Below, piece by piece: positions 3,068 through 52,253 of a stretch of DNA of 52,479 bases (position 1 is its first letter; each line of letters begins with the position of its first letter). Both the position numbers and the translations under genes were made by a program. Source of the stretch: an uncultured bacterium. GTDB taxonomy: Bacteria; Myxococcota_A; UBA9160; SMWR01. The notes beneath the pieces were generated by a model, which had not been told where the DNA came from, ran no database searches, and was given only the letters and a program-made list of their open reading frames with translations. The DNA is taken from the NCBI GenBank assembly GCA_937937315.1, contig CALDCK010000210.1, forward strand, positions 1-52,479. The letters are read 5' to 3'.

Positions 3068-3128
3068 GACGGGGGCCCGGCGCCGCCCGGCCACTCAGGA
3101 CGGCGACGGAGCGCTATCTTTCGGAATC

Positions 3129-6100
3129 GTGCCGATCGACACGGCCGGCCATCGGGCGGGACCGGGAGACTTCTTCCTGCCCCGCACCGAGCGCTACGAG
3201 ATTCGCGACCGCCTCGGAATCGGGTCGCTGGGCGCGGTCTTTCGCGCACTCGACCGGGAGACCGGGCGCGAGGTCGCGCTGAAGACGCTGATCACCCGCG
3301 ACCCGGATGATCTCTATCTCCTGAAGCGCGAATTTCGCGCCCTCGCCGACATCTCCCATCCGAACCTCGTGCAGCTCTACGACCTCGAGGCCGACGGCGA
3401 GCAGTGCTTCTTCACGATGCAGCTCGTGCGGGGAACCGATCTCCTCGAGCACCTCTGCGGATCCGGACCGCGCCCTGCGAGAGACTACGAGCGGCTTCGG
3501 CGCTGCTTCGAGCAGCTGGCCGCGGGACTCGACGCGCTGCACGGACTGGGGAAGCTGCACCGCGACGTGAAGCCGCAGAACGTTCTGGTCGACGAGGACG
3601 GGCAGGTCATCCTCCTCGACTTCGGCCTCGTGATCGGGATGGACAGCGCCCTCTCGATCGCCAGCCAGCGCGACGGGTTCGCCGGGACCCTCCTCTACAC
3701 CTCGCCGGAGCAGGCCTGGGGCAACCCGATCTCGCCGGCAGCGGACTGGTACAGCGCCGGCGTCATGCTCTACGAGTGCTTGACCGGGCAGGCGCCCTTC
3801 GACGGGCCCGGTCTCGGCGCTCTGCTCGACCGCCAGCACCGGGCGCCCGAGCCCCCCCGAGCCCGGGTCCCGTCCATCCCGGAAGACCTGGACCTACTGA
3901 CCCTCGACCTGCTTCGCTACGAGCCCGACACCCGTCCCGGGTTCGACGAGATCGTGAAGCGCCTCGGAGGCGCCGACCTCCCGCCCGCCCCCGACGCGCC
4001 CCGGCGGCTCCCGGATCGGGGGATCGTCGGTCGCGAGGTGGAGCTCCGAAAGCTTCGGGAGGCCATGGATGCCGCCCGCACCGGATCCGGGGCCTGTATC
4101 CGGGTGGAAGGACCGTCGGGCATCGGGAAGTCCGCCCTGGTGGAGCACTTCCTCACCGCCCTCGAACGCGACCACGACGGCGTGGTCCTGCGTGCCCGCT
4201 GTCATCCCAACGAGTCGGTCCGCTTCGAGGCAGTGGATGGGCTGGTCGACGACCTCAGTCGCTTCCTGAGCCGCCTGCCCGAGGAAGAGCTCGAAGCCGT
4301 CCGGCCGCGGGGTCTCAGGGCCCTGCTGCGGATGTTCCCCGTCCTCGGCCGTGTCCCCTTCGCGGACCTCGAGGACGCGCCGGATCTGGCCGACGTCGAC
4401 CCCGGCGAGATCCGGCGGCGCGGCTTCGGTGCGCTCCGCGAGCTGCTGGCGCGCATCGCCGACCGTCGCCCCCTCGCCCTCTGGAGCGACGATCTCCACT
4501 GGGGCGATCTCGACAGCGCCGACTTCCTGCGATCTCTACTGCGACCGCCCGATCCTCCGCCGCTGCTGATGATCCTCTCCTATCGCAGCGACGACCGCAG
4601 GCAGAGCCCGCTCCTGAGAGCGCTCGACGAGGAGCCCGAAGCGGATCGTGCGAATCTCCTCGAGGTCGGCCCCCTGTCGCCGGACGAAGCCCGGGAGCTC
4701 GTAGGCGACCTCCTGCCCCTTGCACCGCCGATGGCGATCGACCGCATTCGCGCCCTGGTCCAGGAAGCGGGCGGCTCCCCCTTCTTCATCGGGGAGCTGG
4801 CCCGCTTCGCCAACCAGCCGACGGCGACGGGTGATGCACCGGGTGATCTCGGCGCCGTCATTCGTGCGCGCCTGGAGGCGCTTCCGAGCGAAGCGCTGGA
4901 GATCCTCGAGCTGGTCGCCGTATCGGGCGCGCCCATCGACACCCAGCTCGTCCTCGAGCTCTCGGGAGTCGCCGGCCGCGGACGACCGAGGGTCTACGAG
5001 CTCTGCAACGGATCGCTATTGCGCGCGAGCTCGTCGGGGCGGGAAGTCGAGACGTATCACGGCCGGATTCGCGACGCGATTCTCGACGGCCTCGACGATC
5101 CAGACCGAAGAAGACGCCACCGTCAGCTCGCCGACGGTCTGGCGGAACGACCCGAGACGAGAGCGGCGACGCTGTTGGAGCACACCCTCGGCGCCGGTGA
5201 CGAGGCCGGCGCAGTTCCGATCGCCCGGGCCGCCGCGGAGGAAGCAGACCGGGGCCTCGCCTTCGACCGGGCCGCCGAGCTCTACGACCTGGCCTGGAAT
5301 CTCGGCGGTTGCCGCGACGACGCCTGGGATCTCCTTTCCCAGCGCGCACGAGTGCTGGCGGCCGCGGGGCGAAGCGCGGCGGCGGCGGATAGCTGGGAAA
5401 CCGCATCCGCGGCGGCGGGGCGGGCCGACGCCGAGGGACACGTGCCCGCCACGCTCCGCGGGCGAGCCGCCGAGCAGCACTTCTACGCCGGGGAGCTGGA
5501 CGAAGGCATGGAAGCCCTGCGCGCAGCCCTGCGCGACCACCGCATCCGCCTTCCCCGCAACCCCGCCGCCGCAACCCGCTCAGCGCTGCGATCGCGGCTC
5601 TACTTCCTGATGCGCGGTGACGGCTTCACGGAGCGCCCGGCGGCGGATCTGCCCGAGGCGACCGTGGCCCGCCTCGACACGCTCCAGGGAGCCGCCCGCG
5701 GCACGTCGATGCTGGACCACACGCTCTCGGACGCCCTCGCCGTTCGGCACCTCCTCGCCGTCCTCGACGCGGGAGAGCCCTCTCGGGTGGTACGCGCCCT
5801 CGGACTCGAGGCGGGGATCGAAGCCAACGCCGGCGGCGCCTGGCTTCGACGGCGCAGCCTCCGCCTCCTCGATCGCATCGACGACCTGGCGAAGCGGACG
5901 GGCGATCCCTTCGATCGAGCCTGGGTAGAGCTCTCGCGATCGGTGGTCGGGTGGTATCACGGCCTCTGGCGCGAGTGCGTCGAGCGCTGCGACCGAGCCG
6001 TCTCCCTCATGCGCGCCGAGTGCATCGGCATCAGCTGGGACCTCGCGGCGAACCGGGCCTTCGCGCTCTCGGCCCTCGTCCAGCTGGGGCGAATCCGCGA

Positions 6101-6818
6101 GCTGGCCGAGCGCCTGCCCGCGCTGCTCGACGAGGCGCGCGAGCGGGGAGACCACTACGCCCTCGGGATCTACCTCACCGGCGACAGCGTCTTCGTTCCC
6201 CTCGCCGCCGACGATCCGGACCGCGCCCGTCAGGACCTCGAGCACATCGACCACACCTGGCAGAACGGTCTCTTCACGTCCCAGCACTTCCGGGGCTTCT
6301 ACAGCGCCGTCCACATCGCGCTCTACGAAGACGAGGCGGAGACCGCGTGGCAGCGCGTCGAGCACGACTGGAGAGCCCTGCGCGATGCGGGCTTCCTACG
6401 CCTCGACTGTGTGGGCAACGGGCTGCGGCATCTGCGAGCGCGAGCCGCGCTGGCTGCAGCGGCTCGGGGGGCGGGTCCGACCGAGCGCCTGGCACGGGTC
6501 GCCGAGGGCGAGCGCCGGCACATCGCGCGCTCCAGCCTGCCCCACGCCAGCGCGAACGCTGCAGCCATCGCCGCCGGCATCGCCAGCCTTCGCGGCGATC
6601 TCGCGGCCTGCAAGCGGGAGCTCGCCGCAGCAGCCGACGCATACGACGCCGCGGAGATGGGCCTCTGCGCTCGATCCGCGCGCTGGCAGCTCGCCGTCGC
6701 GACCGGCGACTCCGAAGATGGACGCCGCGCAGCAGAGGAGATGACGGGCGAGGGAATCCTCGATCCCGCCCGCTTCGCGCGCATGGCACTCCCCCTCCCG
6801 GCTACGGGCAGCGCCTGA
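3129..6818 (+). CDS. Ser/Thr protein kinase fused to a P-loop (AAA/STAND-like) NTPase and a ~600-aa helical-repeat C-terminus
   Basis: Frame of track ORF 2634..6818; the part before 3067 overlaps the ADH gene and is Arg/Pro junk. Kinase motifs are GIGSLGAV, VALK, HRDVKPQN, DFG and SPE. Walker A is GPSGIGKSALV. The long Ala/Leu/Arg-rich tail is TPR-like. The start is uncertain; GTG 3129 is the first in-frame start after the ADH stop. Confidence 0.8.
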   Translation: MPIDTAGHRAGPGDFFLPRTERYEIRDRLGIGSLGAVFRALDRETGREVALKTLITRDPDDLYLLKREFRALADISHPNLVQLYDLEADGEQCFFTMQLVRGTDLLEHLCGSGPRPARDYERLRRCFEQLAAGLDALHGLGKLHRDVKPQNVLVDEDGQVILLDFGLVIGMDSALSIASQRDGFAGTLLYTSPEQAWGNPISPAADWYSAGVMLYECLTGQAPFDGPGLGALLDRQHRAPEPPRARVPSIPEDLDLLTLDLLRYEPDTRPGFDEIVKRLGGADLPPAPDAPRRLPDRGIVGREVELRKLREAMDAARTGSGACIRVEGPSGIGKSALVEHFLTALERDHDGVVLRARCHPNESVRFEAVDGLVDDLSRFLSRLPEEELEAVRPRGLRALLRMFPVLGRVPFADLEDAPDLADVDPGEIRRRGFGALRELLARIADRRPLALWSDDLHWGDLDSADFLRSLLRPPDPPPLLMILSYRSDDRRQSPLLRALDEEPEADRANLLEVGPLSPDEARELVGDLLPLAPPMAIDRIRALVQEAGGSPFFIGELARFANQPTATGDAPGDLGAVIRARLEALPSEALEILELVAVSGAPIDTQLVLELSGVAGRGRPRVYELCNGSLLRASSSGREVETYHGRIRDAILDGLDDPDRRRRHRQLADGLAERPETRAATLLEHTLGAGDEAGAVPIARAAAEEADRGLAFDRAAELYDLAWNLGGCRDDAWDLLSQRARVLAAAGRSAAAADSWETASAAAGRADAEGHVPATLRGRAAEQHFYAGELDEGMEALRAALRDHRIRLPRNPAAATRSALRSRLYFLMRGDGFTERPAADLPEATVARLDTLQGAARGTSMLDHTLSDALAVRHLLAVLDAGEPSRVVRALGLEAGIEANAGGAWLRRRSLRLLDRIDDLAKRTGDPFDRAWVELSRSVVGWYHGLWRECVERCDRAVSLMRAECIGISWDLAANRAFALSALVQLGRIRELAERLPALLDEARERGDHYALGIYLTGDSVFVPLAADDPDRARQDLEHIDHTWQNGLFTSQHFRGFYSAVHIALYEDEAETAWQRVEHDWRALRDAGFLRLDCVGNGLRHLRARAALAAAARGAGPTERLARVAEGERRHIARSSLPHASANAAAIAAGIASLRGDLAACKRELAAAADAYDAAEMGLCARSARWQLAVATGDSEDGRRAAEEMTGEGILDPARFARMALPLPATGSA

Positions 6819-6840
6819 GCGAGTTCGGCGGACAGCTGGC

Positions 6841-9800
6841 CTAGGAGGGATCGAACTTCAGGAATGCATCGAGCAGGGAGCGCAGGGTCTTCACGAACTC
6901 GTCGCCCTCGGTGAAGCCAAGCTCCTCGTCGAGCCGTCCCAGGACGTGGCCCCAGAGCTTGCTGATCTGCCCGGGGAACTCGTCCTTCATCAGGTCCCCG
7001 GGAAGCCCTGCGACCCACTCGCCCAGGCGGAGGATCTCGAAGGCGTGGGGGAGCGGCACACCCCCGGACTTCGTGTCGTACACGGCGCCGTCCAGGCGAC
7101 GAAGGATCGCGAGGTCGTCGAACTCGTGAGCTTCCGGATCCCAGAAATCCGGATAGTCGCCGAAGAAGGTTCCCTGGCCGTTGTAGGTGGGCGGATCGGT
7201 CGGAGGGGCAAGGAGCGCGTGCAGGATCGAAGCGACTGCGTGACGCGCCGACTCATTCGCCGACTCCATGGTCGAGAGTCGGGTGAGAGTCGCCATCTGG
7301 TTGCCCGCCATGAGCCACCGACGACGGGTGAGGTGGTAGTAGATCCTCGATTTCGGGTTCCAGAACAGGTTCATCGGGACCGGGGTGGTTTCGAGCAGGG
7401 AAAGGAGGCCGGGGCGCTCCTTCCAGACCTCCGGCCCGTTGATGAGGAAGGGCGTGGCGTTGCGAACCGGTGTCGCCTCGTCATTCTCCAGCGAGAGCGT
7501 CGCGGATACGGGTCGGATGCGCAGTGAAGAGCCGGACTCGATCCGGAGGCGATGGGTGAGCGAATCCAGCGCCAGGACACTGAGCATCGTGTCGGGGGAC
7601 GCGAAATCCACGTGCAGCCGGGCGCCCTCGACCGCGCGGGCGATGGCGCCGGGAACGTGATCGTTGATGCCGTCCACGAAAGCATCGCGGATCTCGTCCT
7701 CGCTCTCTCCGGACGGCGTCATCTCGATCACTGGCGTGCTCCCGATCCGAATCCGGTAGGGGACCGGCGCGACACCGGCCACACGGATCACCGCCGACGC
7801 ACCCCACGCCGATGCGGCCACGAGCAGGCGGTGCGCCGGGCCGTCACCGGTGTTCACGGGCAGCGGAGCCGCCAGGAATGGGCGCGGGCCGGCGTCGATC
7901 TTCGCCGCGAGCAGGCGCGGAACGTCGCTCGCATCCTCGCCGCTCGTCAGAGTGATCGCGTAGGTCTGCCCCTCGATCGCCAGGGCATGGTCCGCAGCGC
8001 CTTCATCCGCGACACCCACCACCGCGCCGTCGGGGCCGAGCTTTCGCTCACCAACCTCGCCCTCGAACTCGATGGCCTGGTCGAGGTGGTAGTAGGCCGG
8101 GCGTGACAGCTTCCCGGAGAGAACGCCGTCGAGGCCCGCAGTGATCTGCCGCCAGACCTCCTCCGCGAGACCCTGCTTGGACGTATGCCAGGCCGGAGCG
8201 GGCGACCCATCGTCGCGATCGGGTGCTCGGGCGTAGAAGCGACCGATGTCCACGGAGAGCTGGCCGAGGAAGGCACTCCTGCGCGACATGCGCTCGCGCC
8301 AGTAGGCGACCTGAGAGATCGAGGACAGGCCCCAGGGCGCCCGCGGATAGTAGGTGTGGCCGCGCCCGATCCGGACCTGGTGGCTGAAGTAGTACTGGAT
8401 GCCAGACAGGTCGCGGAGCGGATACCTGGCGGGAGTGGGGCGACCGAGGACATCCCGCACGAGCGGGAGCTCGACACCGGCATCGGTGCGACGAGCCGTG
8501 GCCTTCTCGAAGCCCATCATCTGCGCAAAGCAGCCGTCGAGCTGCTGCGGCGAGTCGAGGGCGGCACCGTCCTCGTGAGCCTGCCAGACCAGACGCGATA
8601 CCTCGTCGAAGGGCAGGGCCATGACGTAGAAGTCCGGGCCGCCGCCCGCGCTGGACGGGCTCGGGTCTCCGCCTCCCGGATCGATCTCCACGTAGACCTC
8701 GTCGGGAATCTCCGGCGACGCACCGACGATGCCGACTGCCGGATCGTCGGTAACGATCCGTAGTGAGTCGCCGCGCAGAACGTCGAGCTGTGGAAACGCC
8801 TCTCGATCGACGCGCAGGTCCACACCGCGGCCGACACGGCCCCGCCAGCGCTTAACGTCCACGTGAACGATCTCTCCCTCGGCCTCGCTGGCGAGGCGGA
8901 TCCCCGTCTCGCCGGCTCGGTTCGGCTGGAGATGGCGCACGCGATCGGCGATCTCCACGAGCAGCCGATCGCGAATGTCCTCCGTCGAAAGCGGCGCTTC
9001 CTCCTCCTCCACCTCGATCTCGACTCTCCTCCCGTCGATCTCGGCGCCGTACCGCCCCGCGGCCCGGCTCCGGATCCAGAGCAGGGCCTCCCCCGGACGG
9101 GGGGAGACGAGGAAGGAGCCCCGAAGCACCTGCACCGCGACATCCTCGAGCGGCTCCCTTGCGGAGAGCAGGCTGAGATCCGGGCCGATCGGAACCTCGA
9201 GGCCGAAGAGCTGTATGCGCAGGTCGATGGCGGGACGCCGGATCCGCAGCAGGACGTCGTCTTCCGTGTGCCGCGGCGTGAGCCGCATCCGGCCTGCCCG
9301 GAGGTCTGCCTCACTCATCTGGACCGCGATCCCCAGATCCAGGTCCTCATCGATCTGCCTTGCCAGCCGCTTCGTCGCCTCCGCGAGGGAAACCCCTGCT
9401 TCGAGGGCCATCGAAGTTCGCAGGCCGTTGAGCTCGAGCTCGAGCGTACCCGGGTCGACGAGGATGATCTGGAGCGACGCGTCGCCACAATCATGGGTCT
9501 TCCGCGTCACGATCGGCAGCAGCTCGTCGCCGTGCCACTCGAGCTTCGAGAGCTCGCCGACGAAGAAGCGCACGCCCTGGCGCTGGAGGTAGCGCTTCCA
9601 GTGCCCTAGCCAGGCCTCGGAAGTCGGTCCGTTCAGCGTGCGATTCGCTTCGGACCCGTCTCGCATGACGTCGGTGAGGAGCTGGGCATAAACGGCGCCC
9701 TGGGTGCGCGCATCGGTCTCGTCGGCGCCCATCGCCACCAACGCCTCGGGCGTGGTGCGAAGGAGGTCGGCCATCTCGGCAGAATAGTGATAGCGAGCGT

Positions 9801-11301
9801 TTCCGTTCTCATCCTTCCCGACGAGGAAGTCCCACCAGCTCTGTTCTTCGTACTCTCCCCGGCGCCTCTCGGCGGAGGAGGTGAGGAACTGCATCATGCG
9901 CAGGGAGAAGAGGAGGAGGTCCCGCACGGTGAGATCCAGGAGCTCCCCGCCCAGGTGCATGCGCATGAGCTCTCGCAGCTCCTCGAGGGAGCGCGCTCCT
10001 CGCACCGGCACGCGATGGGGGCGGCGCTGGTCCTCGAGCGCCACATCGACCACTTCGACCGCCTCGAGCTGATCGAAGGCGGTCCGACCCGTCTCGCGGC
10101 CCTGGGCGTCGAGGATCGGCGTTCGCTTCATCGTGTCGAAGAGGTGGCGGTAGAAGCCGGGGAAGAAGCGGTAGCCGTGTTCCCCGGGGATGTGGTGCTC
10201 GACGATGCGCAGCTCCACCCGGTTCGCCCGACGGCGCCCGATTCTTCGCCGCGGATTCCCGAGGCGCTCGGCGCCCCCGACGCCGACCAGCAGGATTCGC
10301 TTCTCCAGGTCGGGGATCGGGCCCCCCGCAGCTTCGTTGCGCGCCACGAGCTCCTGGCGCACCAGATCCGCCCACTCGAGGCTGAGCTCGCGGTCCTTCC
10401 CGGGCGCGCCATCTCCATCGGTATGTCCGCGGATCTCGAGCAGGAACTCCTCGCGGCGGCGCATCCGTTCGCTCAGCCCATCCGAGTCGAAGCCGCCCTT
10501 GTCCGTCTTCTTCTCGATGTTGGAGGCAACGTCCGCGGTATAGGACTGATACGCCTTCAGAAGAGCGGCCCAGATCTCGTCGAGCTTCTGGGAGTTCTTC
10601 GTGCAGTGCTCGTCCTCGATCTCCCGCCAGTCGCCGTCAGACATCGGTCGCTCGAACTGCAGACGCTGAGGCAGGGGGATGCGCGGATGGACCGGCTCCA
10701 TCACAGAGGCACGCAGATGGGCGAGGGTGGAGAGGCCCTCGTAGCGGATGATCGGATTCGAGGGGTCCGCCACTTCGACCGATATGCGCGCCACCTCGCC
10801 CGGGGTCTTCGACGTCACCAGCACCGCGGCACTTCCGTGGAGCTCCGCGTCGAAGCCGGCGCCGATCGCTCCGTCCCGGATCCTCTCCGCAGTCTTCTCC
10901 ATGCTCGATGGGTGGGTCGTGATCTCGAACTCGCCGTCACCGACCCGGACCTTCACCTGTTCCTCCCCCAGGTGGTCCACCCAGATCTGGATGCTTCGCG
11001 GGTCCGGATCCACGGCGTCCTCGCCGGCTTTGTCCTCCTCGCTGAAGAGATAGGGGTGCACCCGCTCGATCTCCGCGGGAACGCGGCCGACCTGGTTCGC
11101 CGCGAGTCCGCCGACTTCGCAGGAGTACTCGTCGTCCGGATCCGGCCGCGCCTCCACCACCTGCACCCCGAACCCGCGCTCCACCAGCTCGTGGGCCAGA
11201 GAGAGGCCGGTCACCCCTGCACCGAAGATGGTGACGATGGGGGCATGCCGGGTCTCCTTCTCTCGTGCGAGATCCACGTCGATCCAGGCGTCGATGGTCA
11301 T
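6841..11301 (-). CDS. 1,486-aa mosaic FAD/NAD(P)-binding oxidoreductase (amine-oxidase / CrtI-like core) with three large insertions, one of them OmpA-like
   Basis: Track ORF 6841..11460. ATG 11301 (MTIDAW..) overlaps the SCP2 gene stop as ATGA. The Rossmann dinucleotide motif is IVTIFGAGVTGLSLAHELVERGFGVQVVE..EVGG. Core blocks are PGEHGYRFFPGFYRHLFDTMKRTPI, DFYVMALPFDEV, LSGIQYYF, GHTYYPRAPWGLSSISQVAYW, TPFLINGPEVWKERPG and LSTMESANESARHAVASIL. There is no signal peptide or TM segment. Confidence 0.75.
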   Translation of the reverse strand: MTIDAWIDVDLAREKETRHAPIVTIFGAGVTGLSLAHELVERGFGVQVVEARPDPDDEYSCEVGGLAANQVGRVPAEIERVHPYLFSEEDKAGEDAVDPDPRSIQIWVDHLGEEQVKVRVGDGEFEITTHPSSMEKTAERIRDGAIGAGFDAELHGSAAVLVTSKTPGEVARISVEVADPSNPIIRYEGLSTLAHLRASVMEPVHPRIPLPQRLQFERPMSDGDWREIEDEHCTKNSQKLDEIWAALLKAYQSYTADVASNIEKKTDKGGFDSDGLSERMRRREEFLLEIRGHTDGDGAPGKDRELSLEWADLVRQELVARNEAAGGPIPDLEKRILLVGVGGAERLGNPRRRIGRRRANRVELRIVEHHIPGEHGYRFFPGFYRHLFDTMKRTPILDAQGRETGRTAFDQLEAVEVVDVALEDQRRPHRVPVRGARSLEELRELMRMHLGGELLDLTVRDLLLFSLRMMQFLTSSAERRRGEYEEQSWWDFLVGKDENGNARYHYSAEMADLLRTTPEALVAMGADETDARTQGAVYAQLLTDVMRDGSEANRTLNGPTSEAWLGHWKRYLQRQGVRFFVGELSKLEWHGDELLPIVTRKTHDCGDASLQIILVDPGTLELELNGLRTSMALEAGVSLAEATKRLARQIDEDLDLGIAVQMSEADLRAGRMRLTPRHTEDDVLLRIRRPAIDLRIQLFGLEVPIGPDLSLLSAREPLEDVAVQVLRGSFLVSPRPGEALLWIRSRAAGRYGAEIDGRRVEIEVEEEEAPLSTEDIRDRLLVEIADRVRHLQPNRAGETGIRLASEAEGEIVHVDVKRWRGRVGRGVDLRVDREAFPQLDVLRGDSLRIVTDDPAVGIVGASPEIPDEVYVEIDPGGGDPSPSSAGGGPDFYVMALPFDEVSRLVWQAHEDGAALDSPQQLDGCFAQMMGFEKATARRTDAGVELPLVRDVLGRPTPARYPLRDLSGIQYYFSHQVRIGRGHTYYPRAPWGLSSISQVAYWRERMSRRSAFLGQLSVDIGRFYARAPDRDDGSPAPAWHTSKQGLAEEVWRQITAGLDGVLSGKLSRPAYYHLDQAIEFEGEVGERKLGPDGAVVGVADEGAADHALAIEGQTYAITLTSGEDASDVPRLLAAKIDAGPRPFLAAPLPVNTGDGPAHRLLVAASAWGASAVIRVAGVAPVPYRIRIGSTPVIEMTPSGESEDEIRDAFVDGINDHVPGAIARAVEGARLHVDFASPDTMLSVLALDSLTHRLRIESGSSLRIRPVSATLSLENDEATPVRNATPFLINGPEVWKERPGLLSLLETTPVPMNLFWNPKSRIYYHLTRRRWLMAGNQMATLTRLSTMESANESARHAVASILHALLAPPTDPPTYNGQGTFFGDYPDFWDPEAHEFDDLAILRRLDGAVYDTKSGGVPLPHAFEILRLGEWVAGLPGDLMKDEFPGQISKLWGHVLGRLDEELGFTEGDEFVKTLRSLLDAFLKFDPS

Positions 11302-11741
11302 TGGGGGGCCTCTGCTGCGGGTTTCGGTGCGGCTGCGAGTCGGCTCACACGGAGCTCGGCGAGGAGCGCGGGAAGGGACGGGCAGCGGATTGCGCCGCCG
11401 AGGTAGCAGACGAGGGCCTCGTCGAAGCGCGTCACGGCGTCGGCGCTCCCCGTGAGCCACAGCCTCTCCTCGAGAAGGGCTTCCAGGAGCGACAGCTCCC
11501 CGTCCACCAGGTCGAGGATCGTGGTCCAGTCGGTGCGCAGGAACATCTCCTCTCGATGATCCGGCTCCCGAAGCGCATGACGGGAGCCCTCGAAGCGAAG
11601 CGCGACGGTCGGCCCGTCCACCTCGCAGCGCAGACCTCGGCGCCCCAGGGTCGAGGCCAGCTCAGCGTGGTGATCGGGCGCTTCGACCCGGAGGATCGTG
11701 AGGGAGCGGTCCAGGAATGCGGGGAAGTCAGGCTGCCGCAC
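11298..11741 (-). CDS. SCP2 (sterol/lipid carrier)-like small protein
   Basis: 147 aa. TDWTTILDLVDGELSLLEALLEERLWLTGSADAVTRFDEAL resembles the SCP2 C-terminal helix-strand pattern. The GTG start overlaps the upstream stop by 14 nt, and its stop overlaps the downstream ATG. Confidence 0.5.
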   Translation of the reverse strand: MRQPDFPAFLDRSLTILRVEAPDHHAELASTLGRRGLRCEVDGPTVALRFEGSRHALREPDHREEMFLRTDWTTILDLVDGELSLLEALLEERLWLTGSADAVTRFDEALVCYLGGAIRCPSLPALLAELRVSRLAAAPKPAAEAPQ

Positions 11742-12786
11742 GATTCATCTCCACCAGTCCCGGGCCCTCGAAGCACACCGGCTCTCCCCGGACCTGGCCC
11801 TCGACCCGGACCTCGGATCGCACCTCGGAGACGATCGTGGCACCGCGACCGACGTCGTTGGGAATCGCGACCTGGGCGAGATCCCCGAGCTCGAACTCGA
11901 TGTCGAGGGCGTCCGCACCCCGCCGCGCCTCGACCCGAATGCGAGCCGGCAGATCCGCCGCTCGCCCCGGCGAAACGAGGGACATGATCCGCGGCACCCG
12001 CAGCGCCCCACGCGTGGAGGTCCGACCCTCGGAGTGAACCGACAGCTCCGATCCGTGGAGCGTGCGGAGATGGCGATCGCCGCGCCAGAGCAGGACGCCC
12101 TGGGAGAGGGTGCGCAGGCGGCCGCGATCGGAGATGCGCTGGAATACCAGGGTCCACGGCACCGCCTCGTCGGCGAGCCCGATGCCCCACTCCCAGGAGA
12201 AGTCGCCGCCCCAGCGGAAGCTTCCCCAATCGTGATCGTGATAGGCGGGCGCCCGAACGAGCTCCCGGCGGCCCCCCCGCCAGACGACGGTCCCCGAGGC
12301 CTCGAGCCTCGGCACCACGAACCAGCGCATGCCGGGCCCGTCGGCGAGAGGGACGCTGGTCGTGAGCGCCGGTCGCGAGGCCAGCTCGAGCCGAAGCCTG
12401 GCGCGCAGCGCCTGGCGCCTCAGGGCCAGGTCGAGCTCGTAGGCGCCGTCCCGAAAGCGCAATCGGTTCGGGCCCAGGCGCAGGTCGACGCCCCCTTCGT
12501 CGATCTCGAGCGCCGAGGATGCGTAGGCGTCGACGTCGCCGGTCCAGTCGCCGCCCGGCTCACGCATCAGCACGGTGAGGCGCGGGGTCTCGATCGCGCC
12601 GAAAGCATCCATCAGGCTGAAGTTGATCAGCAGGTCGAGGTCCCGCCCGAAGATGCAGAAGTGGGACCACTCCTTGTGTCCCGCCGGCCCCCCGACCGAC
12701 GCCGGCGAGCGCCGCCAGTGATCCGCCTGAAGCACCAGGGCTCCGAGGGTCGCCGGGTCGATGGCGCGATGAGCGTGGAGATTCAT
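11728..12786 (-). CDS. 352-aa beta-rich protein, CrtC/AttH-like (lipocalin-type hydratase-like); function unproven
   Basis: Track ORF 11728..13122; only the part from ATG 12786 (MNLHAHRAIDP..) looks coding. The motif APAYHDHDWGSFRWGGDFSWEWG resembles the YHDxNWG..W.WG signature I associate with hydroxyneurosporene-synthase/AttH family proteins. Confidence 0.4.
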   Translation of the reverse strand: MNLHAHRAIDPATLGALVLQADHWRRSPASVGGPAGHKEWSHFCIFGRDLDLLINFSLMDAFGAIETPRLTVLMREPGGDWTGDVDAYASSALEIDEGGVDLRLGPNRLRFRDGAYELDLALRRQALRARLRLELASRPALTTSVPLADGPGMRWFVVPRLEASGTVVWRGGRRELVRAPAYHDHDWGSFRWGGDFSWEWGIGLADEAVPWTLVFQRISDRGRLRTLSQGVLLWRGDRHLRTLHGSELSVHSEGRTSTRGALRVPRIMSLVSPGRAADLPARIRVEARRGADALDIEFELGDLAQVAIPNDVGRGATIVSEVRSEVRVEGQVRGEPVCFEGPGLVEMNRAAA

Positions 12787-12814
12787 GGGAGCGGGTCCCG
12801 CTGGGGGTGGAGAC

Positions 12815-13129
12815 TCATCGGAGCAGATCCAGGCGGGCCGACGGCTCGCGTCGTGCCGCTTCGTCGACGGCTTCCTCCGGCTGGGGCGACCGGGCGAGCC
12901 AGACATCGACCCTCGCTCCGAGGGCGAGCAGTCCGAGCCAGGCGGCGATCTCCGGGGGCACCTGCGCGCCGTCGGCGGACACCGCCGACGGCCGCTCCTC
13001 CCGCGCCGATTCGCCGGGTGCCTCGCGCTCGATCCATTCGCGAATCCGCCGGGCCAGTGCCAGGGCGCCGAGGGCGAGGAGCAGCACCTCGTCCTCCTGG
13101 GGCGCCGGTCCATGCTGCTCATTCAGCAT
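12815..13129 (-). CDS. 104-aa hypothetical protein with two hydrophobic segments (possible small membrane protein)
   Basis: This is the tail of track ORF 12815..13696, starting at ATG 13129 (MLNEQHGPAPQEDEVLLLALGALALARRI..IAAWLGLLALGARVDVWL..). It has high GC3. It fills the gap between neighbouring genes exactly and overlaps the upstream stop by 11 nt. Confidence 0.45.
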   Translation of the reverse strand: MLNEQHGPAPQEDEVLLLALGALALARRIREWIEREAPGESAREERPSAVSADGAQVPPEIAAWLGLLALGARVDVWLARSPQPEEAVDEAARREPSARLDLLR

Positions 13130-13727
13130 CGCCCTCGCCTCCGGGTCCGCCGAAGAGGCGGTCGAGGATCGCGTCCGGATCGTCCGAGGACGCCGCCATG
13201 AAAAGCCCGTCCAGGTAGGCGGAGGGCAGGGGGCCATCGTCGCCCGCCTCCATCGAGCCGAGGGAGGCGATCTGCCAGACGATGCGCAGGTGGTGCAGGA
13301 GATCCGAGCCCTCCAGTCGACGCCTCCACGCCTGCCCGTCTTCGGTCTCCGCATAGCGTCGCCCCTCGGCCACGAGGGCCCGCACCGCGGACTGGGCGGC
13401 GGCGGGGTGGCGCAGGATCGTGCGCTGGAGCGCCCGAAGCATGGCGACGGTCTCATCGTCGCCCTCCCCGCTGTCGGGAAGCGGGGGCAGGAGCTCGTCC
13501 GCGATCCGATCTCCCATCTCAGCCTGAGCGGCGAGCCTCGACATCCGATCGAAGAACACCCGACGCGCTCCCTCGTAGCCCGGGCGCGCGCCGCTCCCGG
13601 AGCTCTCGACCCGATTGCGCTCATGCCGCTTGCGGAGCTCACCCACGAGGCGTTCGAGGGAGTCTCCGGCCTCCCGATCCGCACCTCGAAGCTCACGAAG
13701 CGCGCGCTGCAGCGTCCCCTCCTTCAT
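13119..13727 (-). CDS. 202-aa helical hypothetical protein
   Basis: Track ORF. Coding-like composition, ATGA overlap with the prenyl synthase stop, and no motif I recognise. Confidence 0.6.
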   Translation of the reverse strand: MKEGTLQRALRELRGADREAGDSLERLVGELRKRHERNRVESSGSGARPGYEGARRVFFDRMSRLAAQAEMGDRIADELLPPLPDSGEGDDETVAMLRALQRTILRHPAAAQSAVRALVAEGRRYAETEDGQAWRRRLEGSDLLHHLRIVWQIASLGSMEAGDDGPLPSAYLDGLFMAASSDDPDAILDRLFGGPGGEGDAE

Positions 13728-14851
13728 CGGTCGCGTGCCACCACGAAGTCCACGAGACCCTCCAGGAAGTCCCGGTGGACGGAGCCGGGAAGGCTTCCTC
13801 CGATCGCCTCGAAGGACCGCCGCGCGCGATCGGCGTGCCGACGCGCCACGACGCGTGCGTGGTCCACGCCACCGCTGCGAAGGACCAGGTCTCGCAGGAA
13901 GGCCACGTCCTCCCGGGACTTCACATCGGCCGATTTCCGGTCCTGTCGGTTCACCTCGCAGGGCCGCGAGCGCCCGAGGATGCGGAGCGCCTCGCGACGC
14001 GCCGCGGGGCTCGCCTGGCGGATTGCGTGGATCAGCAGGAGGGTGTGCTTCCCCTCCCAGAGATCACCGTCGATCTCCTTTCCGTAGCGAGATGCCTCGC
14101 CCACCAGGTTGAGCACGTCGTCCTGGATCTGGAAGGCGATGCCCAGGGGCGTCACGCACCGGGCGAGGACGGCGAGCTCCGGATCTCGAGCTCCCGCCGC
14201 GATGCCGCCGACCAGCACGGGAGCGAGGAACGTGTACCAGCACGTCTTCTTGTAGACCATGCGCAGATAGGCGCGATCCGTTGGGGACCAATCCGCGCGA
14301 CGCACCCAGTCGAGCTCCATCATCTGGCCCTCGGCGGATTCCCGGGCCATGCGCGCAACGACGCGCAGGATCCGCAGGGCTCGACCCAGCCCGACGAGCT
14401 CGATGTTCTCGAGCAGCGGCTCCATGGTGAGGGCGAGCATCCCGTCGCCCACGTTCACCGCGATGGGAACGCCGTGGAGCTGGTGCAGGGTCCGTTCGTT
14501 GCGCCGCAGGTCGGAGCCGTCCTCGACGTCGTCGTGGATCAGGAAGGCGTTGTGGTAGAGCTCGAGCACGGCAGAGGAGCGCAGCACCGACTCGAGATGT
14601 CCGCCCAGGGCTCGGCAGGTGGCGATGCAGAGGGCCGGCCGCAGGGCCTTCCCTCCCCGCATCGGGTAGTCGAGCATCAGCTCGTAGAGGAGCCCCCCGG
14701 CCCGCGCGTCCCGGGGCACGATCTCGCGGATCTCGTCGACGACGCGACCGCGACAATCCTCCATGTAGGCGAGGAGTCGGTCCGGATCTTCGGCTGGCGT
14801 ATCGCCAATCAGGGGGGGCTGCAGCATCGGGTCCCTCGCTGCTCGACCCAT
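13724..14851 (-). CDS. trans-polyprenyl diphosphate synthase (FPP/GGPP synthase family)
   Basis: First Asp-rich motif FLIHDDVEDGSDLRR, second Asp-rich motif FQIQDDVLN, and KALRPAL. AGGA lies upstream of ATG 14851. Only 11 nt separate it from the cyclase stop. Confidence 0.85.
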   Translation of the reverse strand: MGRAARDPMLQPPLIGDTPAEDPDRLLAYMEDCRGRVVDEIREIVPRDARAGGLLYELMLDYPMRGGKALRPALCIATCRALGGHLESVLRSSAVLELYHNAFLIHDDVEDGSDLRRNERTLHQLHGVPIAVNVGDGMLALTMEPLLENIELVGLGRALRILRVVARMARESAEGQMMELDWVRRADWSPTDRAYLRMVYKKTCWYTFLAPVLVGGIAAGARDPELAVLARCVTPLGIAFQIQDDVLNLVGEASRYGKEIDGDLWEGKHTLLLIHAIRQASPAARREALRILGRSRPCEVNRQDRKSADVKSREDVAFLRDLVLRSGGVDHARVVARRHADRARRSFEAIGGSLPGSVHRDFLEGLVDFVVARDR

Positions 14852-14862
14852 CTTATCCTGAA

Positions 14863-15975
14863 CTAGCCCAGACGGGGGATCGAGTTCGCTTCGATCTCAG
14901 ACGCGACGTAGAGCGTGAGGGGATCCGCCAGTCCTCGCACCGACACCCCGTCGCGTCGCGCGAAGTGCCGCGCCGCGTCACCGCTGGCGCTCCAGGTCGC
15001 CTCGTCGAGCGCGATCGGAACCCGAAGCTCTCGAGTCAGCGTCTGGAGCCTGGAGGCGAGGTTCGTGGTGCTCCCCACCGCGCTCCAGATCAGGCGATCC
15101 TCTGCCGCGATGTCGCCCACATATCCCCGACCGCTCGCCACGCCGACCCCGATCGAAGGGGTGTCGGGCAGCTCCGACTCCAGCCGCCGGACCAGCGGCG
15201 GAACGGCGAGGGCCAGCTTCAGGGCGGCCCGGGCCGCCGCGCCCTCTTTCGCCTCCAGCGGATCCGGAGCGCCGAAGACCGCCATCATGCCGTCGCCGTT
15301 GAACTCGACGATCGTTCCGCCGTGGCGCCGGATGATCGACGAAGCGCTTCGCACGTAGCGGTTCAGCAGACGGAAGACCTGGGAGCAGCGCAGCATCGAC
15401 GCGGTGGTGGTGTAGCCACGAACGTCCAGGAAGAGCACGGTGATATCCCGCTCTCCAGAGTCTTGACCGCGATCGGCCTGGATGCGATCGGAGATGGGCC
15501 CCGGCACGTACCGGCTGAGCTGCTCCACGTGCTGGTGCTCGTGTCGGGCGACCGCCTCGATCCGAAGTCGCTCCAGCTCCGCGGCGGCTGCATGCGCTGC
15601 GATCGTCAGCCAGCGCCGGTGCTCCAGGGACACGCGCGTGATGCCGCCGATACGCAGGACCCCGAGAGAGCGCTCGCCGCGCCGCAGTGGCACGAGCATT
15701 TCGCGACGGTCCAGGCACGCGTCCTCCCCATCGTCACCTCGGCAGGGGGCGCACTCGAGATAGGGGCCGACGCGGACCTCGGCCGAGCAGCCCTGCGCGG
15801 CGAGGAGATCCTCGGCGAACCCGACGAGGACCTCCCCCACCTCAGCCGCATGGCTGCACGCCGCCAGCGCGAGGAGCACGCTCGCGGGGTCCGCGCCGAC
15901 CCGGGGCGGCGAAGGCACCGAACGCTGGGACGTCCGCTCGAACGTTCCGAGGATCTCGCTCTGCGGGTCCAGCAT
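14863..15975 (-). CDS. GAF-like sensor domain fused to a class III adenylate/guanylate cyclase
   Basis: Track ORF 14863..16227. ATG 15975 (MLDPQSE..) has GGAGGAG 7 nt upstream. Cyclase motifs are ITVLFLDVRGYT, IVEFNGDGMMAVFGAP and GVASGRGYVGDI..SAVGSTTNLASRLQ. Confidence 0.8.
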   Translation of the reverse strand: MLDPQSEILGTFERTSQRSVPSPPRVGADPASVLLALAACSHAAEVGEVLVGFAEDLLAAQGCSAEVRVGPYLECAPCRGDDGEDACLDRREMLVPLRRGERSLGVLRIGGITRVSLEHRRWLTIAAHAAAAELERLRIEAVARHEHQHVEQLSRYVPGPISDRIQADRGQDSGERDITVLFLDVRGYTTTASMLRCSQVFRLLNRYVRSASSIIRRHGGTIVEFNGDGMMAVFGAPDPLEAKEGAAARAALKLALAVPPLVRRLESELPDTPSIGVGVASGRGYVGDIAAEDRLIWSAVGSTTNLASRLQTLTRELRVPIALDEATWSASGDAARHFARRDGVSVRGLADPLTLYVASEIEANSIPRLG

Positions 15976-16011
15976 GATCGATCTCCTCCACTTCCCCGAG
16001 ATGTGGAGTAG

Positions 16012-16027
16012 AGCAATCGCCATGCCA
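16012..16027 (-). promoter_or_regulatory. Sigma-54 (-24/-12) promoter TGGCATG-GCGA-TTGCT facing the cyclase/prenyl operon
   Basis: The minus strand reads TGGCATGGCGATTGCT, with GG and GC separated by exactly 10 nt. This matches the consensus TGGCACG-N4-TTGCW. The element ends about 37 nt upstream of the ATG at 15975, and a bEBP gene is encoded divergently. Confidence 0.6.
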
Positions 16028-16066
16028 TGCGCCTCTGGCGTCCTGAAGAGGCGACAGCCCCCCGGG

Positions 16067-16084
16067 CGTCCTCCGGAGAGGACG
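16067..16084. promoter_or_regulatory. Perfect inverted repeat CGTCCTC-CGGA-GAGGACG, with a third GAGGACGG half-site at 16110-16117; candidate activator-binding site
   Basis: Read directly. It lies 40-90 bp upstream of the -24 element, inside the 250-bp divergent intergenic region. Confidence 0.4.
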
Positions 16085-16225
16085 GTCGACCGGATCGGTG
16101 TCCGGCCTGGAGGACGGATCTGGCGGTGCGCAGGCCTCTCACGGAGCCATCGAGGCGGCGCGGCGCTTGCACTCCGCTCCATCGCAATGGCAAGCTCGAT
16201 CTCCATCTGGAAGAGGTCTCGCTTC

Positions 16226-17776
16226 ATGGGCGGGGACGGCGAGCATCGACTACGGCAGGAGCGGGATCTCTATCACCGGCTCCTCGACCTCGGCACCCAG
16301 CAGCTCATCGAGCCCTTTCTCGCCGAGGCCCTGGCCCTTGTGGTCGAGGTGACCGGAGCCCAGCGCGGCTACCTCGAGCTGCGAGACGAGCTGGCCGACT
16401 CCGAAGACGCGCCGTGGTGGATGGCCCAGGGCTGCTCTTCCGACGACCTCGGCACGATTCGCGATGCGATCTCGCGAGGCATCATTGCCGAGGCGATCGC
16501 GACGGGGCAGACCGTCGTCACCTCGTCAGCCCTCCTGGACCCGCGCTTCCGGAAGCGCGAGAGCGTTCGCTCCCGCCAGATCCAGGCCGTGCTGTGTGCA
16601 CCCGTGGGAGGCCCCCCACCCATCGGGGTCTTCTACCTCGAAGGCGCCGAGGGCACCGGGCCCTGGTCCGACGAAGACCGGGAGCGCGCCGAGACCTTCG
16701 CCCGGCACCTCGCCCCGCTGGCCGACCGCCTACTCGACCGCCATCGGACCCGAGAGCGGGAGGACGCGACCCGCGGGCCGCGCCAGACGCTCCGGCTCGC
16801 GGGAGTGGTGGGACGCAGCGCCGCCCTGGCGAGCGTGCTCGAGCAGGCCGCCATGGTCGCCCCCCTCGACGTGAACGTTCTCCTCACCGGAGACTCGGGG
16901 ACGGGGAAGAGTCAGCTCGCCCGGGTGATCCACGAGAACGGCGGACGCGCCGGCGGCCCCTTCGTGGAGGTGAACTGCGCCGCGCTGCCCGAGAGCCTGA
17001 TCGAGTCCGAGCTCTTCGGCGCCGCGCGGGGAGCACACTCCACCGCGCACCAGGCCGCCGCCGGGAAGGTGGAGGCAGCCTCCCGGGGCACGCTCTTCCT
17101 CGACGAGGTCGGTGAGCTCCCGATCTCCGCCCAGGCAAAGCTCCTCCAGCTCCTCCAGTCGAAGCAGTACTACCCGCTCGGATCCAACGAGGCCGTGAGC
17201 GCCGACGTCCGCCTGATCGCGGCGACGAACACCGATCTGGAGGTCGCGGTGAGCGACAAGCGCTTCCGGGAGGATCTCTACTACCGACTCTGTGTGCTCC
17301 CGATCCGCATGCCGACCCTGGCGGAGCGTCCGGAGGACGTCGGGGAGCTCGCCGCCTTCTTCTGTGCCCAAACCTCCGAACGACACCGGCTTCCGCGCCT
17401 CGAGCTGTCCGAAGGGGCGCGGCGGGCGATCGAGGCTGCCGAGTGGCCCGGCAACGTGCGCCAGCTCGCGCACACCCTGGAGGCCGCGACGATCCGAGCC
17501 GCCGGGAAGCACGCAGCTCGGGTGGAGCGGCGCCACGTCTTTCCGGACCAGCCCGGCGAAGACGTTGGAGAAGCGGAAGAGCACCTGACCTATCAGGAGG
17601 CGACTCGGCGCTTCCAGCGCAGGCTCCTACACGAGACGCTGGTCGAGACCGGCTGGAACGTGAGCGAGGCCGCGCGACGCCTCGACCTGGCCCGCTCCCA
17701 CGTCTACAAGCTGATCCACGGCTTCGGGATGGACCGCGAGGACACAGTCGAGCCGAGTCGAGACGCGGAGCGCTGA
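16226..17776 (+). CDS. GAF-AAA+-Fis-HTH transcriptional activator (sigma-54 bEBP family) with a non-canonical GAFTGA loop
   Basis: Track ORF 15974..17776; the ATG is at 16226. Walker A is GDSGTGKS. It also has ESELFG, GTLFLDEVGELP and RFREDLYYRL, and a C-terminal HTH NVSEAARRLDLARSHVYKLI. The GAFTGA position reads GAHSTA (17030-17047). Confidence 0.8.
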   Translation: MGGDGEHRLRQERDLYHRLLDLGTQQLIEPFLAEALALVVEVTGAQRGYLELRDELADSEDAPWWMAQGCSSDDLGTIRDAISRGIIAEAIATGQTVVTSSALLDPRFRKRESVRSRQIQAVLCAPVGGPPPIGVFYLEGAEGTGPWSDEDRERAETFARHLAPLADRLLDRHRTREREDATRGPRQTLRLAGVVGRSAALASVLEQAAMVAPLDVNVLLTGDSGTGKSQLARVIHENGGRAGGPFVEVNCAALPESLIESELFGAARGAHSTAHQAAAGKVEAASRGTLFLDEVGELPISAQAKLLQLLQSKQYYPLGSNEAVSADVRLIAATNTDLEVAVSDKRFREDLYYRLCVLPIRMPTLAERPEDVGELAAFFCAQTSERHRLPRLELSEGARRAIEAAEWPGNVRQLAHTLEAATIRAAGKHAARVERRHVFPDQPGEDVGEAEEHLTYQEATRRFQRRLLHETLVETGWNVSEAARRLDLARSHVYKLIHGFGMDREDTVEPSRDAER

Positions 17777-24383: not shown

Positions 24384-24474
24384 AGCTCGGTGGCCCGACA
24401 GCCTTCCAGTCGATAGGGTGCCGCCTGCCCGGGGAGTCCCCCCGGTGACCGAACGGAGACCGGAGGAACCCCCG

Positions 24475-37208: not shown

Positions 37209-37705
37209 CAAGCGTACTCCTCGATCTGCTCGAAGGGGACATCGGGCTCGTCGATGGGCTCGAAGTACCGGATGCTCGAGACGTTCTCCGTGAGCTGGTC
37301 GTCGGGCGCCCAGTGCGCCTGGACCCGCATGCCGATGCGGACCTCGTCGAGGGCGCAGTTCTGGAGCACGTGGAAGAAGCCGAGGTTCGCCCCGTCGAGG
37401 AGCACCGTGGCACACACGTAGGGCAGCTCGAAGGGGATGTTGTCGGAGGGCACGCGCACGATCGAGTAGGTCACGACCGTCCCCTTGTCCGAGACCTCGA
37501 CCAGCTCGGCGGCGAGCTCCGAGGTGCGCGGGTCCGCGCCGCGCGGCGGCACCAGTACGGGCTCGCCGGGCCCGGTCCGCGCTCCGAGGATCTTCTTCTG
37601 CGTCAGGCCGCGCAGGAACCCGGTCGCCGCGGCCCCGGCGGAGTGGTCGTACTCGAGTCGCACGGGGGTGACGATCGACTTCAGCGCGTTGGGGAGGTCG
37701 CTCAC
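37208..37705 (-). CDS. DUF35-like OB-fold protein lacking the Zn-ribbon cysteines
   Basis: GTG 37705 has GGAGGG upstream; 165 aa. VLVPPRGADPRT..VEVSDKGTVVTYSIV follows the DUF35 ribbon-to-OB transition, but no CxxC pairs are present. Confidence 0.55.
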   Translation of the reverse strand: MSDLPNALKSIVTPVRLEYDHSAGAAATGFLRGLTQKKILGARTGPGEPVLVPPRGADPRTSELAAELVEVSDKGTVVTYSIVRVPSDNIPFELPYVCATVLLDGANLGFFHVLQNCALDEVRIGMRVQAHWAPDDQLTENVSSIRYFEPIDEPDVPFEQIEEYA

Positions 37706-37707
37706 GA

Positions 37708-38163: not shown

Positions 38164-38246
38164 GACTTTCTCCATCGTGAGCCGGCGCATCGGGCCGCCG
38201 TGCGTCGGGGCGGACCGCCGCACCGCGACGATGGGCTCGACGGGGG

Positions 38247-52251: not shown

Positions 52252-52253
52252 GC

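Follow-up and report, generated by a model that had tools for sequence, protein, structure and literature searches.

What a bacterium would make with a gene set that combines a nucleotide cyclase, a prenyl diphosphate synthase, lipid-handling proteins and a giant flavoprotein is the question raised by a 52,479-nt stretch of DNA from an uncultured bacterium assigned to the Myxococcota_A (assembly GCA_937937315.1, contig CALDCK010000210.1, positions 1 to 52,479; hereafter the window, G+C content ~70%). Seven genes, here called g1 to g7, are packed on its minus strand between positions 15975 and 6841, and a preliminary description had taken them for a single coupled operon and a candidate undescribed isoprenoid-lipid system. 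Six of them, encoding the synthase (g2), g3, g4, g5, g6 and the flavoprotein (g7), form a conserved unit, which is usually flanked by a gene for a protein kinase fused to a STAND (signal transduction ATPase with numerous domains) module. This six-gene module probably specifies a conserved, self-contained isoprenoid pathway in which soluble proteins, assisted by a carrier, build a short acyclic isoprenoid and modify it.

An open reading frame (ORF) check of the window returned the seven genes with the coordinates and lengths first reported. In order, they are g1 (14863-15975, 370 aa), for a class III nucleotide cyclase that has a putative sensor region at its N-terminus; g2 (13724-14851, 375 aa), for a short-chain trans-isoprenyl diphosphate synthase resembling geranylgeranyl diphosphate (GGPP) synthases; g3 (13119-13727, 202 aa), for a protein with a ~110-aa conserved C-terminal domain of no recognised fold; g4 (12815-13129, 104 aa), for a small two-motif protein; g5 (11728-12786, 352 aa), for an AttH/CrtC-fold two-barrel enzyme; g6 (11298-11741, 147 aa, GTG start), for an SCP2-like lipid-binding protein; and g7 (6841-11301, 1486 aa), for a flavin adenine dinucleotide (FAD) flavoprotein with a core of the phytoene desaturase (PDS)/amine-oxidase type that carries inserts. 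The junctions also proved to be as claimed, namely an 11-nt gap between g1 and g2 (14852-14862), an ATGA overlap of g2 and g3 (13724-13727), an 11-nt overlap of g3 and g4 (13119-13129), a 28-nt gap between g4 and g5, a 14-nt overlap of g5 and g6 (11728-11741) and an ATGA overlap of g6 and g7 (11298-11301). Neither a sigma-70-like promoter nor a minus-strand terminator was found inside the seven-gene unit, and independent gene calls at four orthologous loci (L001, L003, L005 and L006) give mostly the same overlapping junctions. No clear transmembrane segment was seen in the hydropathy profile of any of the seven proteins.

The preliminary description had made its proposal depend on whether homologues of the giant gene keep company with prenyl synthase, AttH-like and SCP2-like genes in other genomes, and they do so at 35 other loci in several phyla. 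Hidden Markov models (HMMs) of g3, g4 and g5 match exactly the same 36 sequences, i.e. these 35 loci and the window, and the HMM of g6 matches the same 36 plus two truncated contigs. The synthase gene is adjacent wherever the flanking sequence suffices, except at L050 and at the fragmentary L087. Hosts of the module include Myxococcota (Sorangium sp. So ce375, Nannocystaceae bacterium ST9, Archangium and Labilithrix), metagenome-assembled genomes (MAGs) of Gammaproteobacteria, Thermodesulfobacteriota and Binatia, and mycobacteria (Mycolicibacterium chlorophenolicum, M. tusciae and Mycobacterium aurum). Two paralogous full modules (L021 and L046) lie ~1.6 Mb apart on one contig of Nannocystaceae bacterium ST9, a cultured strain. 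The P450, SRPBCC, hydrolase and PMT_2 genes that flank the cluster in the window were considered as further parts of the module and rejected, as they are conserved only in L001, bar a few weak P450 or hydrolase matches; a neighbouring pyrroloquinoline quinone dehydrogenase gene is likewise conserved only in L001.

Given this distribution, it is scarcely credible that the adjacency is fortuitous or that the ORFs do not belong to one functional unit. Such a view can draw on the ambiguous start codon of g3, for which the database gene call is 146 aa as against the 202-aa ORF. In L001 and L003, however, the N-terminal 56 residues at stake are kept in the protein sequence, and the form of 202-204 aa lies directly against the synthase gene. 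Moreover, at loci for which gene calls exist, gene order and the mostly overlapping junctions recur with giant proteins that are 35-69% identical, and g3 to g6 co-occur without exception in loci from several phyla, a synteny that contradicts chance neighbourhood.

The assignment of g2 as a polyprenyl diphosphate synthase is firm (Pfam polyprenyl_synt, PF00348, 3.5e-60), and the protein has two Asp-rich motifs, DDVED and DDVLN. Among solved structures, it is closest to two GGPP synthases, 1wmw (9.5e-47) and 1wy0, the former, from T. thermophilus, sharing the DDVLN second motif. The matches in NCBIfam are to short-chain and GGPP synthases, all under their cut-offs; the best of them, NF041169 ('family 2 encapsulin cargo polyprenyl transferase'), scored 185 bits against a cut-off of 450. 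A Phe residue lies four positions before the first Asp-rich motif. As judged by the nearest solved relatives, the NCBIfam ranking and this Phe, g2 would form an allylic prenyl diphosphate of short chain length, C20 being the most likely and C15 a possible alternative.

The preliminary description had called g7 a FAD oxidoreductase of 1,486 aa. In Pfam, its N-terminal Rossmann motif matches DAO and NAD_binding_8; the models for CrtI and CrtD (TIGR02734 and NF045637) match at E ~0.02 over residues 23-55 only, which is the Rossmann motif and short of family-level membership, and the OmpA match is weak by sequence. Across the family, a C-terminal segment is conserved besides the N-terminal dinucleotide-binding motif. 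The fold was approached through an AlphaFold2 (AF2) model of P0043, a homologue of 1088 aa encoded at a full-module locus (pLDDT 80.7). The top structural match of this model is rice phytoene desaturase, 5mog, with a template modelling (TM) score of 0.63-0.75 on the target, followed by monoamine, nicotine and putrescine oxidases, and an insert in it matches the OmpA-like domains of YfiB and OprF. In g7 the core is split by the OmpA-like insert at residues ~276-366 (window ~10204-10476) and by two further large inserts. The OmpA-like insert has TD-x-D-G and NRVE motifs, which we take to resemble the hallmark motifs of the OmpA-like family, and the protein has no signal peptide. The oxidoreductase call is thus upheld at the level of fold, as is the insert, through structure. 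Giant size is a lineage-specific trait, and so is the OmpA-like insert: flavoproteins at full-module loci range from ~630 to 1716 aa, and the NRVE motif was found only in the window, L001, L003/L004, L086 and L087. A BLASTP self-comparison of g7 revealed no internal repeats. The protein collection holds 197 homologues of the giant protein, 'hypothetical' or with generic names where named, and at least 523 relatives of the flavoprotein are present in one-genome-per-species data.

The plant and cyanobacterial PDS and the flavin amine oxidases are the best structural match of the g7 core. The g7 family differs from them in that identity is 8-10%, the core is broken by lineage-specific inserts (in the window, the OmpA-like domain and two others, ~800 aa in total), and a prenyl diphosphate synthase is the fusion or pairing partner of the flavoprotein, with no source of phytoene.

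For g5, neither a Pfam nor an NCBIfam family was matched by the window protein alone, a sequence-profile search of the PDB gave nothing meaningful, and CrtC (PF07143) did not match even at E <= 10. The AF2 model (pLDDT 93) has a two-domain lipocalin-like beta-barrel structure, for which Foldseek returned matches to AttH, 2ich (E 8e-12, TM 0.61-0.66), and, at TM ~0.6, to kievitone hydratase, the pericyclases Fsa2, Phm7 and CghA, and 25-phosphosteroid lyase. Among 53 members of the g5 family, there are weak Pfam matches to DUF2804 in 23, to Tocopherol_cycl in 18 and to CrtC in three. The alignment reveals a YHD-H-x-WG signature, in which Y182, H183, D184 and G188 are invariant and H185 and W187 occur in at least 90% of the sequences, as well as many conserved Trp residues. 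The earlier CrtC/AttH-like label is borne out by the family-wide matches and the predicted structure, not by the window sequence alone. Similarly, the SCP2-like label of g6 is carried by its family: the window protein reached 15.3 bits (E = 0.025) with the SCP2 profile, whose cut-off is 21.3, and SCP2 was matched by 13 of 27 orthologues (best 3.4e-5) and Alkyl_sulf_C by nine of the 27. The nine profile matches in the PDB are all weak and apparently all to SCP2-type proteins.

The two-barrel fold of g5 is shared, at TM 0.6, by several AttH-fold enzymes of isoprenoid metabolism, including kievitone hydratase, CrtC, tocopherol cyclase, 25-phosphosteroid lyase and an AttH hydratase that acts in the formation of hydroxylated glycerol dialkyl glycerol tetraethers (bioRxiv 10.1101/2025.10.20.683597). 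However, g5 is only 10-15% identical to the solved members, has its own YHD-H-x-WG signature and matches no curated family.

The superfamilies of g2 (trans-prenyl diphosphate synthases), g7 (PDS/CrtI-fold flavoproteins) and g5 (AttH/CrtC-fold proteins) also stand side by side in the acyclic carotenoid genes crtE/crtD/crtC. The module might accordingly be asked to tailor the end groups of an acyclic carotenoid, with g2 as CrtE, the flavoprotein as a CrtD-like 3,4-desaturase, g5 as a CrtC-like 1,2-hydratase, and CrtB and CrtI encoded elsewhere. CrtC and CrtD pair up in purple bacteria and in Myxococcus. Some g5 homologues are named 'carotenoid 1,2-hydratase' or 'hydroxyneurosporene synthase', and the few CrtC matches in the g5 family, the nearness of the flavoprotein core to phytoene desaturase and the GGPP-synthase-like g2 would all suit this role. 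Nevertheless, carotenoid tailoring is an unlikely function. In keeping with the preliminary description, the scanned ORFs of the window yielded none of the SQS_PSY, UbiA or terpene-synthase domains that would mark a condensing enzyme, a UbiA-type transferase or a canonical terpene synthase; SQS_PSY is also missing from the Pfam tables of L001, L003, L005, L006 and L086, and the module includes no phytoene or dehydrosqualene synthase (CrtB/CrtM). The module proteins fail the CrtC, CrtD and CrtI models or match them at the Rossmann motif only, as seen above for g5 and g7. Furthermore, g3, g4 and the SCP2-like protein, which co-occur strictly as obligatory partners in the module, have no counterpart in the carotenoid pathway. 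The module proteins also seem to be soluble, and encapsulins are linked to relatives of the module; in these relatives, a fusion of the synthase to the flavoprotein beside an encapsulin is hard to square with a membrane-embedded C40 substrate.

The g3 protein has no match in Pfam, NCBIfam or the PDB, the last including a sequence-profile search. An exhaustive phmmer search recovered its domain in 389 representative clusters at E <= 1e-3 (a word-indexed homologue search had given only three matches), and the conserved domain is C-terminal among the matches listed. The g3 proteins of mycobacteria all end in RPEGFA. At some full-module loci an extra ORF of 236-260 aa lies between the synthase gene and g3 (L006:7162-7872, L078 ~3500-4040, L086:5033-5815 and L019 ~7217-7561); this ORF, which the window lacks, has a C-terminal region resembling a beta-sandwich.

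The g4 protein, for which the Pfam and NCBIfam scans gave no family match, carries two L-L-G-[LIV]-x-S-[LV]-x-x-R motifs, has linkers rich in Pro and Ala, and ends in LLR. In the alignment of 30 orthologues (A6), one Gly per motif is invariant and the C-terminal L-R is nearly so. The preliminary description had noted two hydrophobic segments in this protein, but a transmembrane nature is not upheld: the segments are the motifs, each of ~12 residues, and because hydropathy peaks at only 1.59 in a 19-residue window, g4 is not a clear membrane protein.

Relatives of the flavoprotein outside the full module connect it more closely to the synthase. At five loci (L038, L042, L047, L061 and L076), from four MAGs of Alphaproteobacteria and one of Pseudonocardiaceae, one ORF joins in frame a flavoprotein of ~600 aa and a synthase that belongs, like g2, to the DDVLN subfamily, e.g. 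L047:9806-12766, which encodes ~985 aa with matches to Amino_oxidase (1.4e-17) and prenyl diphosphate synthase (2.9e-60). At five others (L040, L063, L067, L071 and L085) the two are encoded by adjacent genes. All ten of these fusion or pair loci include a gene for a DUF3237 protein, in which no targeting peptide is evident, and the nine with enough upstream sequence include a Family 1 encapsulin gene (profile comparison with M. xanthus EncA, 1.4e-26); several also carry a gene for a cyclase-AAA_16 protein. In Spirosoma panaciterrae (L031:9962-12540), the gene for a stand-alone flavoprotein overlaps the start of a gene for a Pyr4-like transmembrane terpene cyclase (PF25129, 9e-17), which is followed by a histidine kinase gene. 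The flavoprotein is therefore tied to isoprenoid enzymes in three independent contexts.

The mycobacterial six-gene clusters have a 259-aa ORF directly upstream (L035:5907-6686, with orthologues in L030, L037, L041, L080 and L083). Pfam, the PDB profile search and pairwise BLASTP against encapsulin were all negative for this ORF, but aligned profile to profile with encapsulin by hhalign it gave a full-length match (95.6% probability, E 1.1e-8). By this comparison, it is a putative encapsulin shell protein, diverged and unannotated. The mycobacterial clusters are preceded by a gene for an AAA_16-GAF-cyclase-TPR protein. Thus, a shell gene of the Family 1 type (HK97 fold, PF04454) was recognised at the fusion and pair loci and, in profile-profile comparison, at the six mycobacterial loci, and none in the window.

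These shell genes invite the explanation that the module is cargo of an encapsulin, or accessory to one, whose shell gene lies elsewhere in the genome, with g4 and perhaps the C-terminal tail of g3 as loading motifs. The chemistry would be compatible with the isoprenoid pathway proposed here. The diverged encapsulin with which the mycobacterial six-gene clusters start, and the Family 1 encapsulin that flavoprotein-synthase pairs come after, speak for it. The cargo genes of the M. xanthus encapsulin are dispersed. In addition, the L-G-[LIV]-x-S-[LV] core that occurs twice in each g4 protein resembles the targeting-peptide consensus of Family 1 encapsulins, SDGSLGIGSLKRS, as quoted in PMC8346489; the likeness extends over about six residues only and can serve as a lead only. 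Still, this explanation is doubtful for the window: neither here nor at the 29 non-mycobacterial full-module loci was an encapsulin found within flanks of up to 10 kb, and the motif resemblance is short. As the encapsulin-linked fusion loci have neither g3 nor g4, these two proteins are not needed for encapsulation. The idea that the giant inserts of g7 substitute for a missing shell was dropped, as encapsulin-less full-module loci (L012, L016, L019, L021 and L024) have flavoproteins of ~630-800 aa.

In the window and in L001, genes of the PMT_2 type lie close to the cluster, and in L005 they do so together with STT3. They raise the further possibility that a polyprenyl-phosphate glycan carrier is remodelled, the prenyl primer being saturated or hydroxylated for the nearby GT-C glycosyltransferases. 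The wider group of PDS/CrtISO flavoproteins includes saturases of double bonds, e.g. RetSat. This is a very unlikely role, however. The PMT_2, P450, SRPBCC and alpha/beta-hydrolase flanks are, as set out above, kept in L001 with few exceptions elsewhere, no cis-prenyltransferase was noticed in the module, and all module proteins appear soluble.

A sigma-54-type -24/-12 element, TGGCATGGCGATTGC, lies on the minus strand at 16013-16027, 37 nt upstream of the g1 ATG with a GGAGGAG ribosome-binding site in between, and has one mismatch to TGGCAC-N5-TTGC. It has the GG-N10-GC pattern at a suitable distance from the first gene, and is the only one of two window sites with at most one mismatch that lies upstream of the unit. 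L001, whose giant protein is 69% identical, keeps the element at the equal position as TGGCATGGGGCTTGC, so that the near-consensus promoter reported before is both present and conserved, and TGGCAY-N5-TTGC is also found upstream of activator-led operons in L005, L017 and L026. Two palindromic blocks, GATCCGTCCTCCAGGCCGGACACC and CCGTCCTCTCCGGAGGACGCC (16065-16120, minus strand), are located ~40-110 nt upstream of the element. Their arms are common to the window and L001 within an intergenic region that is otherwise partly diverged, and they are candidate binding sites of the activator. An Rfam scan of the window gave no match.

The divergent gene (16226-17776, plus strand) encodes an enhancer-binding protein whose GAF-AAA+-HTH architecture, as first described, has firm Pfam support (Sigma54_activat, PF00158, 1.4e-62; GAF, 6e-13; HTH_8, 5e-6). 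As judged by alignment with L001, its start is probably the ATG at 16226. The GAFTGA loop is replaced by GAHSTA (residues around ESELFGAARGAHSTA), and a loop of the GAHS type is present in all eight cluster-linked activators (L001, L005, L011, L017, L021, L026, L027 and the window), whereas an unrelated activator in L071 retains GAFTGA. Because of this replacement, sigma-54 dependence is only probable, not certain. Directly 5' of the probable ATG, a non-coding block of ~43 nt (16183-16225) is near-identical in L001, the rest of the surrounding intergenic region having diverged; the block might serve the activator gene itself as a promoter or leader.

The cyclase domain of g1 is that of class III enzymes (Guanylate_cyc, PF00211, 5.8e-14). 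The GAF part of the 'GAF-class III cyclase' first proposed is weaker, since the N-terminus has a partial GAF_2 match at E = 0.005, below the Pfam cut-off. Kinship of this region with the GAF domain of the activator was also considered and discarded, the similarity not being significant. The best solved relative is 2w01 (1.6e-23), which we take to be Cya2, a guanylyl cyclase of Synechocystis; the alignment includes the segments FLDVRGYT and GDG, which presumably hold the metal-binding Asp residues. At the substrate-specifying position before GDG, g1 has Glu (tivEFnGDG), like 2w01, and 6fht, an engineered adenylyl cyclase, has Lys. As this Glu is common to g1 and 2w01, the product may be cyclic GMP (cGMP) rather than cyclic AMP. 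The cyclase gene lies inside the operon only in the window and its close relative L001, and both the cyclase and sigma-54 control are lineage-specific. A second-messenger cyclase in a lipid operon had been called unusual: its place in the operon is indeed restricted to these two loci, but the association is less odd than it seemed, as STAND regulators with cyclase or kinase domains accompany the flavoprotein in three distinct arrangements.

Such a regulator is encoded next to the unit in the window. The convergent gene (2634-6818, plus strand, 1394 aa in the longest ORF) specifies a Ser/Thr kinase with a STAND-type AAA_16 ATPase (Pkinase, 3.8e-44; AAA_16, 3.3e-26), and its stop codon and that of g7 are only 22 nt apart (window 6818-6841). 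In L001, L003, L005 and L006, a homologue is convergent right after the flavoprotein gene in the same tight layout. A convergent gene for a Pkinase-AAA_16 protein of ~1200 aa comes after the flavoprotein gene at most non-mycobacterial loci, and a kinase match lies less than 6 kb from the flavoprotein in most non-mycobacterial full-module loci. In Microcoleus, the gene after that of the flavoprotein encodes a Pkinase-AAA_16-GAF-PP2C protein. This brings to four the contexts in which the flavoprotein is linked to signalling proteins of the STAND type.

Gene order, conservation, folds, fusions and the promoter motif, all of them observed, lead to the following outline of a self-contained isoprenoid pathway. 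The allylic diphosphate made by g2 would be the starting chain. The flavoprotein g7 would oxidise the isoprenoid chain by dehydrogenation, or alternatively saturate or isomerise it. A protonation-type step on a C=C bond, which might be the addition of water, ring closure or elimination of a phosphate ester, would fall to g5, and g6 would hold the hydrophobic intermediate in the cytoplasm. An accessory or scaffold role is envisaged for g3 and g4, whose conserved short terminal motifs could tie the enzymes into one complex. In this lineage, expression would start from the sigma-54-type promoter, driven by the divergent GAF-AAA+ activator, and the nucleotide made by g1, possibly cGMP, may act back on GAF domains, with the kinase/STAND protein of the convergent gene as a conserved signalling partner. 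Given the fusions and the encapsulin genes in relatives, with a diverged encapsulin gene ahead of the six genes in mycobacteria and a classical one ahead of the fusion in Alphaproteobacteria and some Actinomycetota, the chemistry is probably sequestered or channelled.

Several points weigh against this outline. PDS-type enzymes normally take C30/C40 hydrocarbons supplied by a condensing enzyme, not C15/C20 chains, and a C30/C40 condensing enzyme is absent here. By sequence, g7 of the window matches known families only at the Rossmann motif, plus weakly to OmpA, and the P0043 model through which its structure was approached has a low-confidence insert. The AttH fold also hosts Diels-Alderases, which leaves the chemistry of g5 undecided, and the chain length of the g2 product is drawn from nearest relatives. 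In the DNA available, an encapsulin gene is absent from the window and from its myxobacterial relatives, and the activator lacks the canonical GAFTGA loop. The substrate, the order of reactions, the product and the regulatory loop are all inferred.

A bolder form of the pathway can be suggested tentatively, although it is rather less than probable. The module would be the enzymatic core of a sequestered terpenoid pathway of a kind not recognised before, in which the synthase is coupled to the PDS-like flavoenzyme, in some lineages by physical fusion, and the AttH-fold protein acts as a hydratase, a phosphate lyase or a terpene synthase of non-canonical type. Together they would make a new isoprenoid inside a shell or a g3/g4 complex, and the STAND kinase and cyclase proteins that accompany the flavoprotein would read this product as a signal. 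A close precedent is found in Family 2B encapsulins, which PMC8346489 and PMC11550324 connect with terpenoid biosynthesis through a terpene cyclase or polyprenyl transferase cargo. The likenesses are a prenyl diphosphate synthase of a related subfamily, cyclic-nucleotide signalling and a shell gene beside relatives of the module. The shells in these relatives are, however, of Family 1 (Linocin_M18 type) or a diverged form, and a shell gene is missing from the window. Nor do the Family 1 and Family 2 cargo classes in the available part of PMC8346489 include a flavoprotein of the PDS-like kind or a protein with the AttH fold. In the literature searched, some of it accessible in part, encapsulated terpene synthesis with a Family 1 shell and a PDS-like flavoprotein was not found described.

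The view that the unit lies outside the canonical carotenoid, hopanoid and quinone clusters has held, with no characterised match in the literature or in the NCBIfam and Pfam scans. No published description of the cluster was found in the literature searched, which covers few subscription journals. What the module offers is a probable isoprenoid biosynthetic cluster with two unannotated protein families, g3 and g4. If the proposed pathway is correct, it would be a new bacterial route to terpenoids that does without a condensing enzyme, a UbiA transferase and a canonical terpene synthase, and its hosts would include environmental mycobacteria as well as myxobacteria that can be cultivated (Sorangium, Nannocystaceae and Pyxidicoccus). 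It would assign a role to the g3 domain family, the g4 family and a large unnamed branch of PDS-like flavoproteins, link Family 1 encapsulins to isoprenoid chemistry, and wire cyclic-nucleotide or STAND signalling to lipid or terpenoid synthesis. As the module is small and present in strains with culture-collection or strain designations, it is directly testable.

Elsewhere in the window, thiolase-like genes and genes for a ChsH2-type OB-fold protein and an acyl-CoA dehydrogenase are located at 35001-39423 and 51043-52479, and an enoyl-CoA hydratase gene at 24283-25272. These genes look like a set for beta-oxidation of lipids or steroid side chains that is unrelated to the module.

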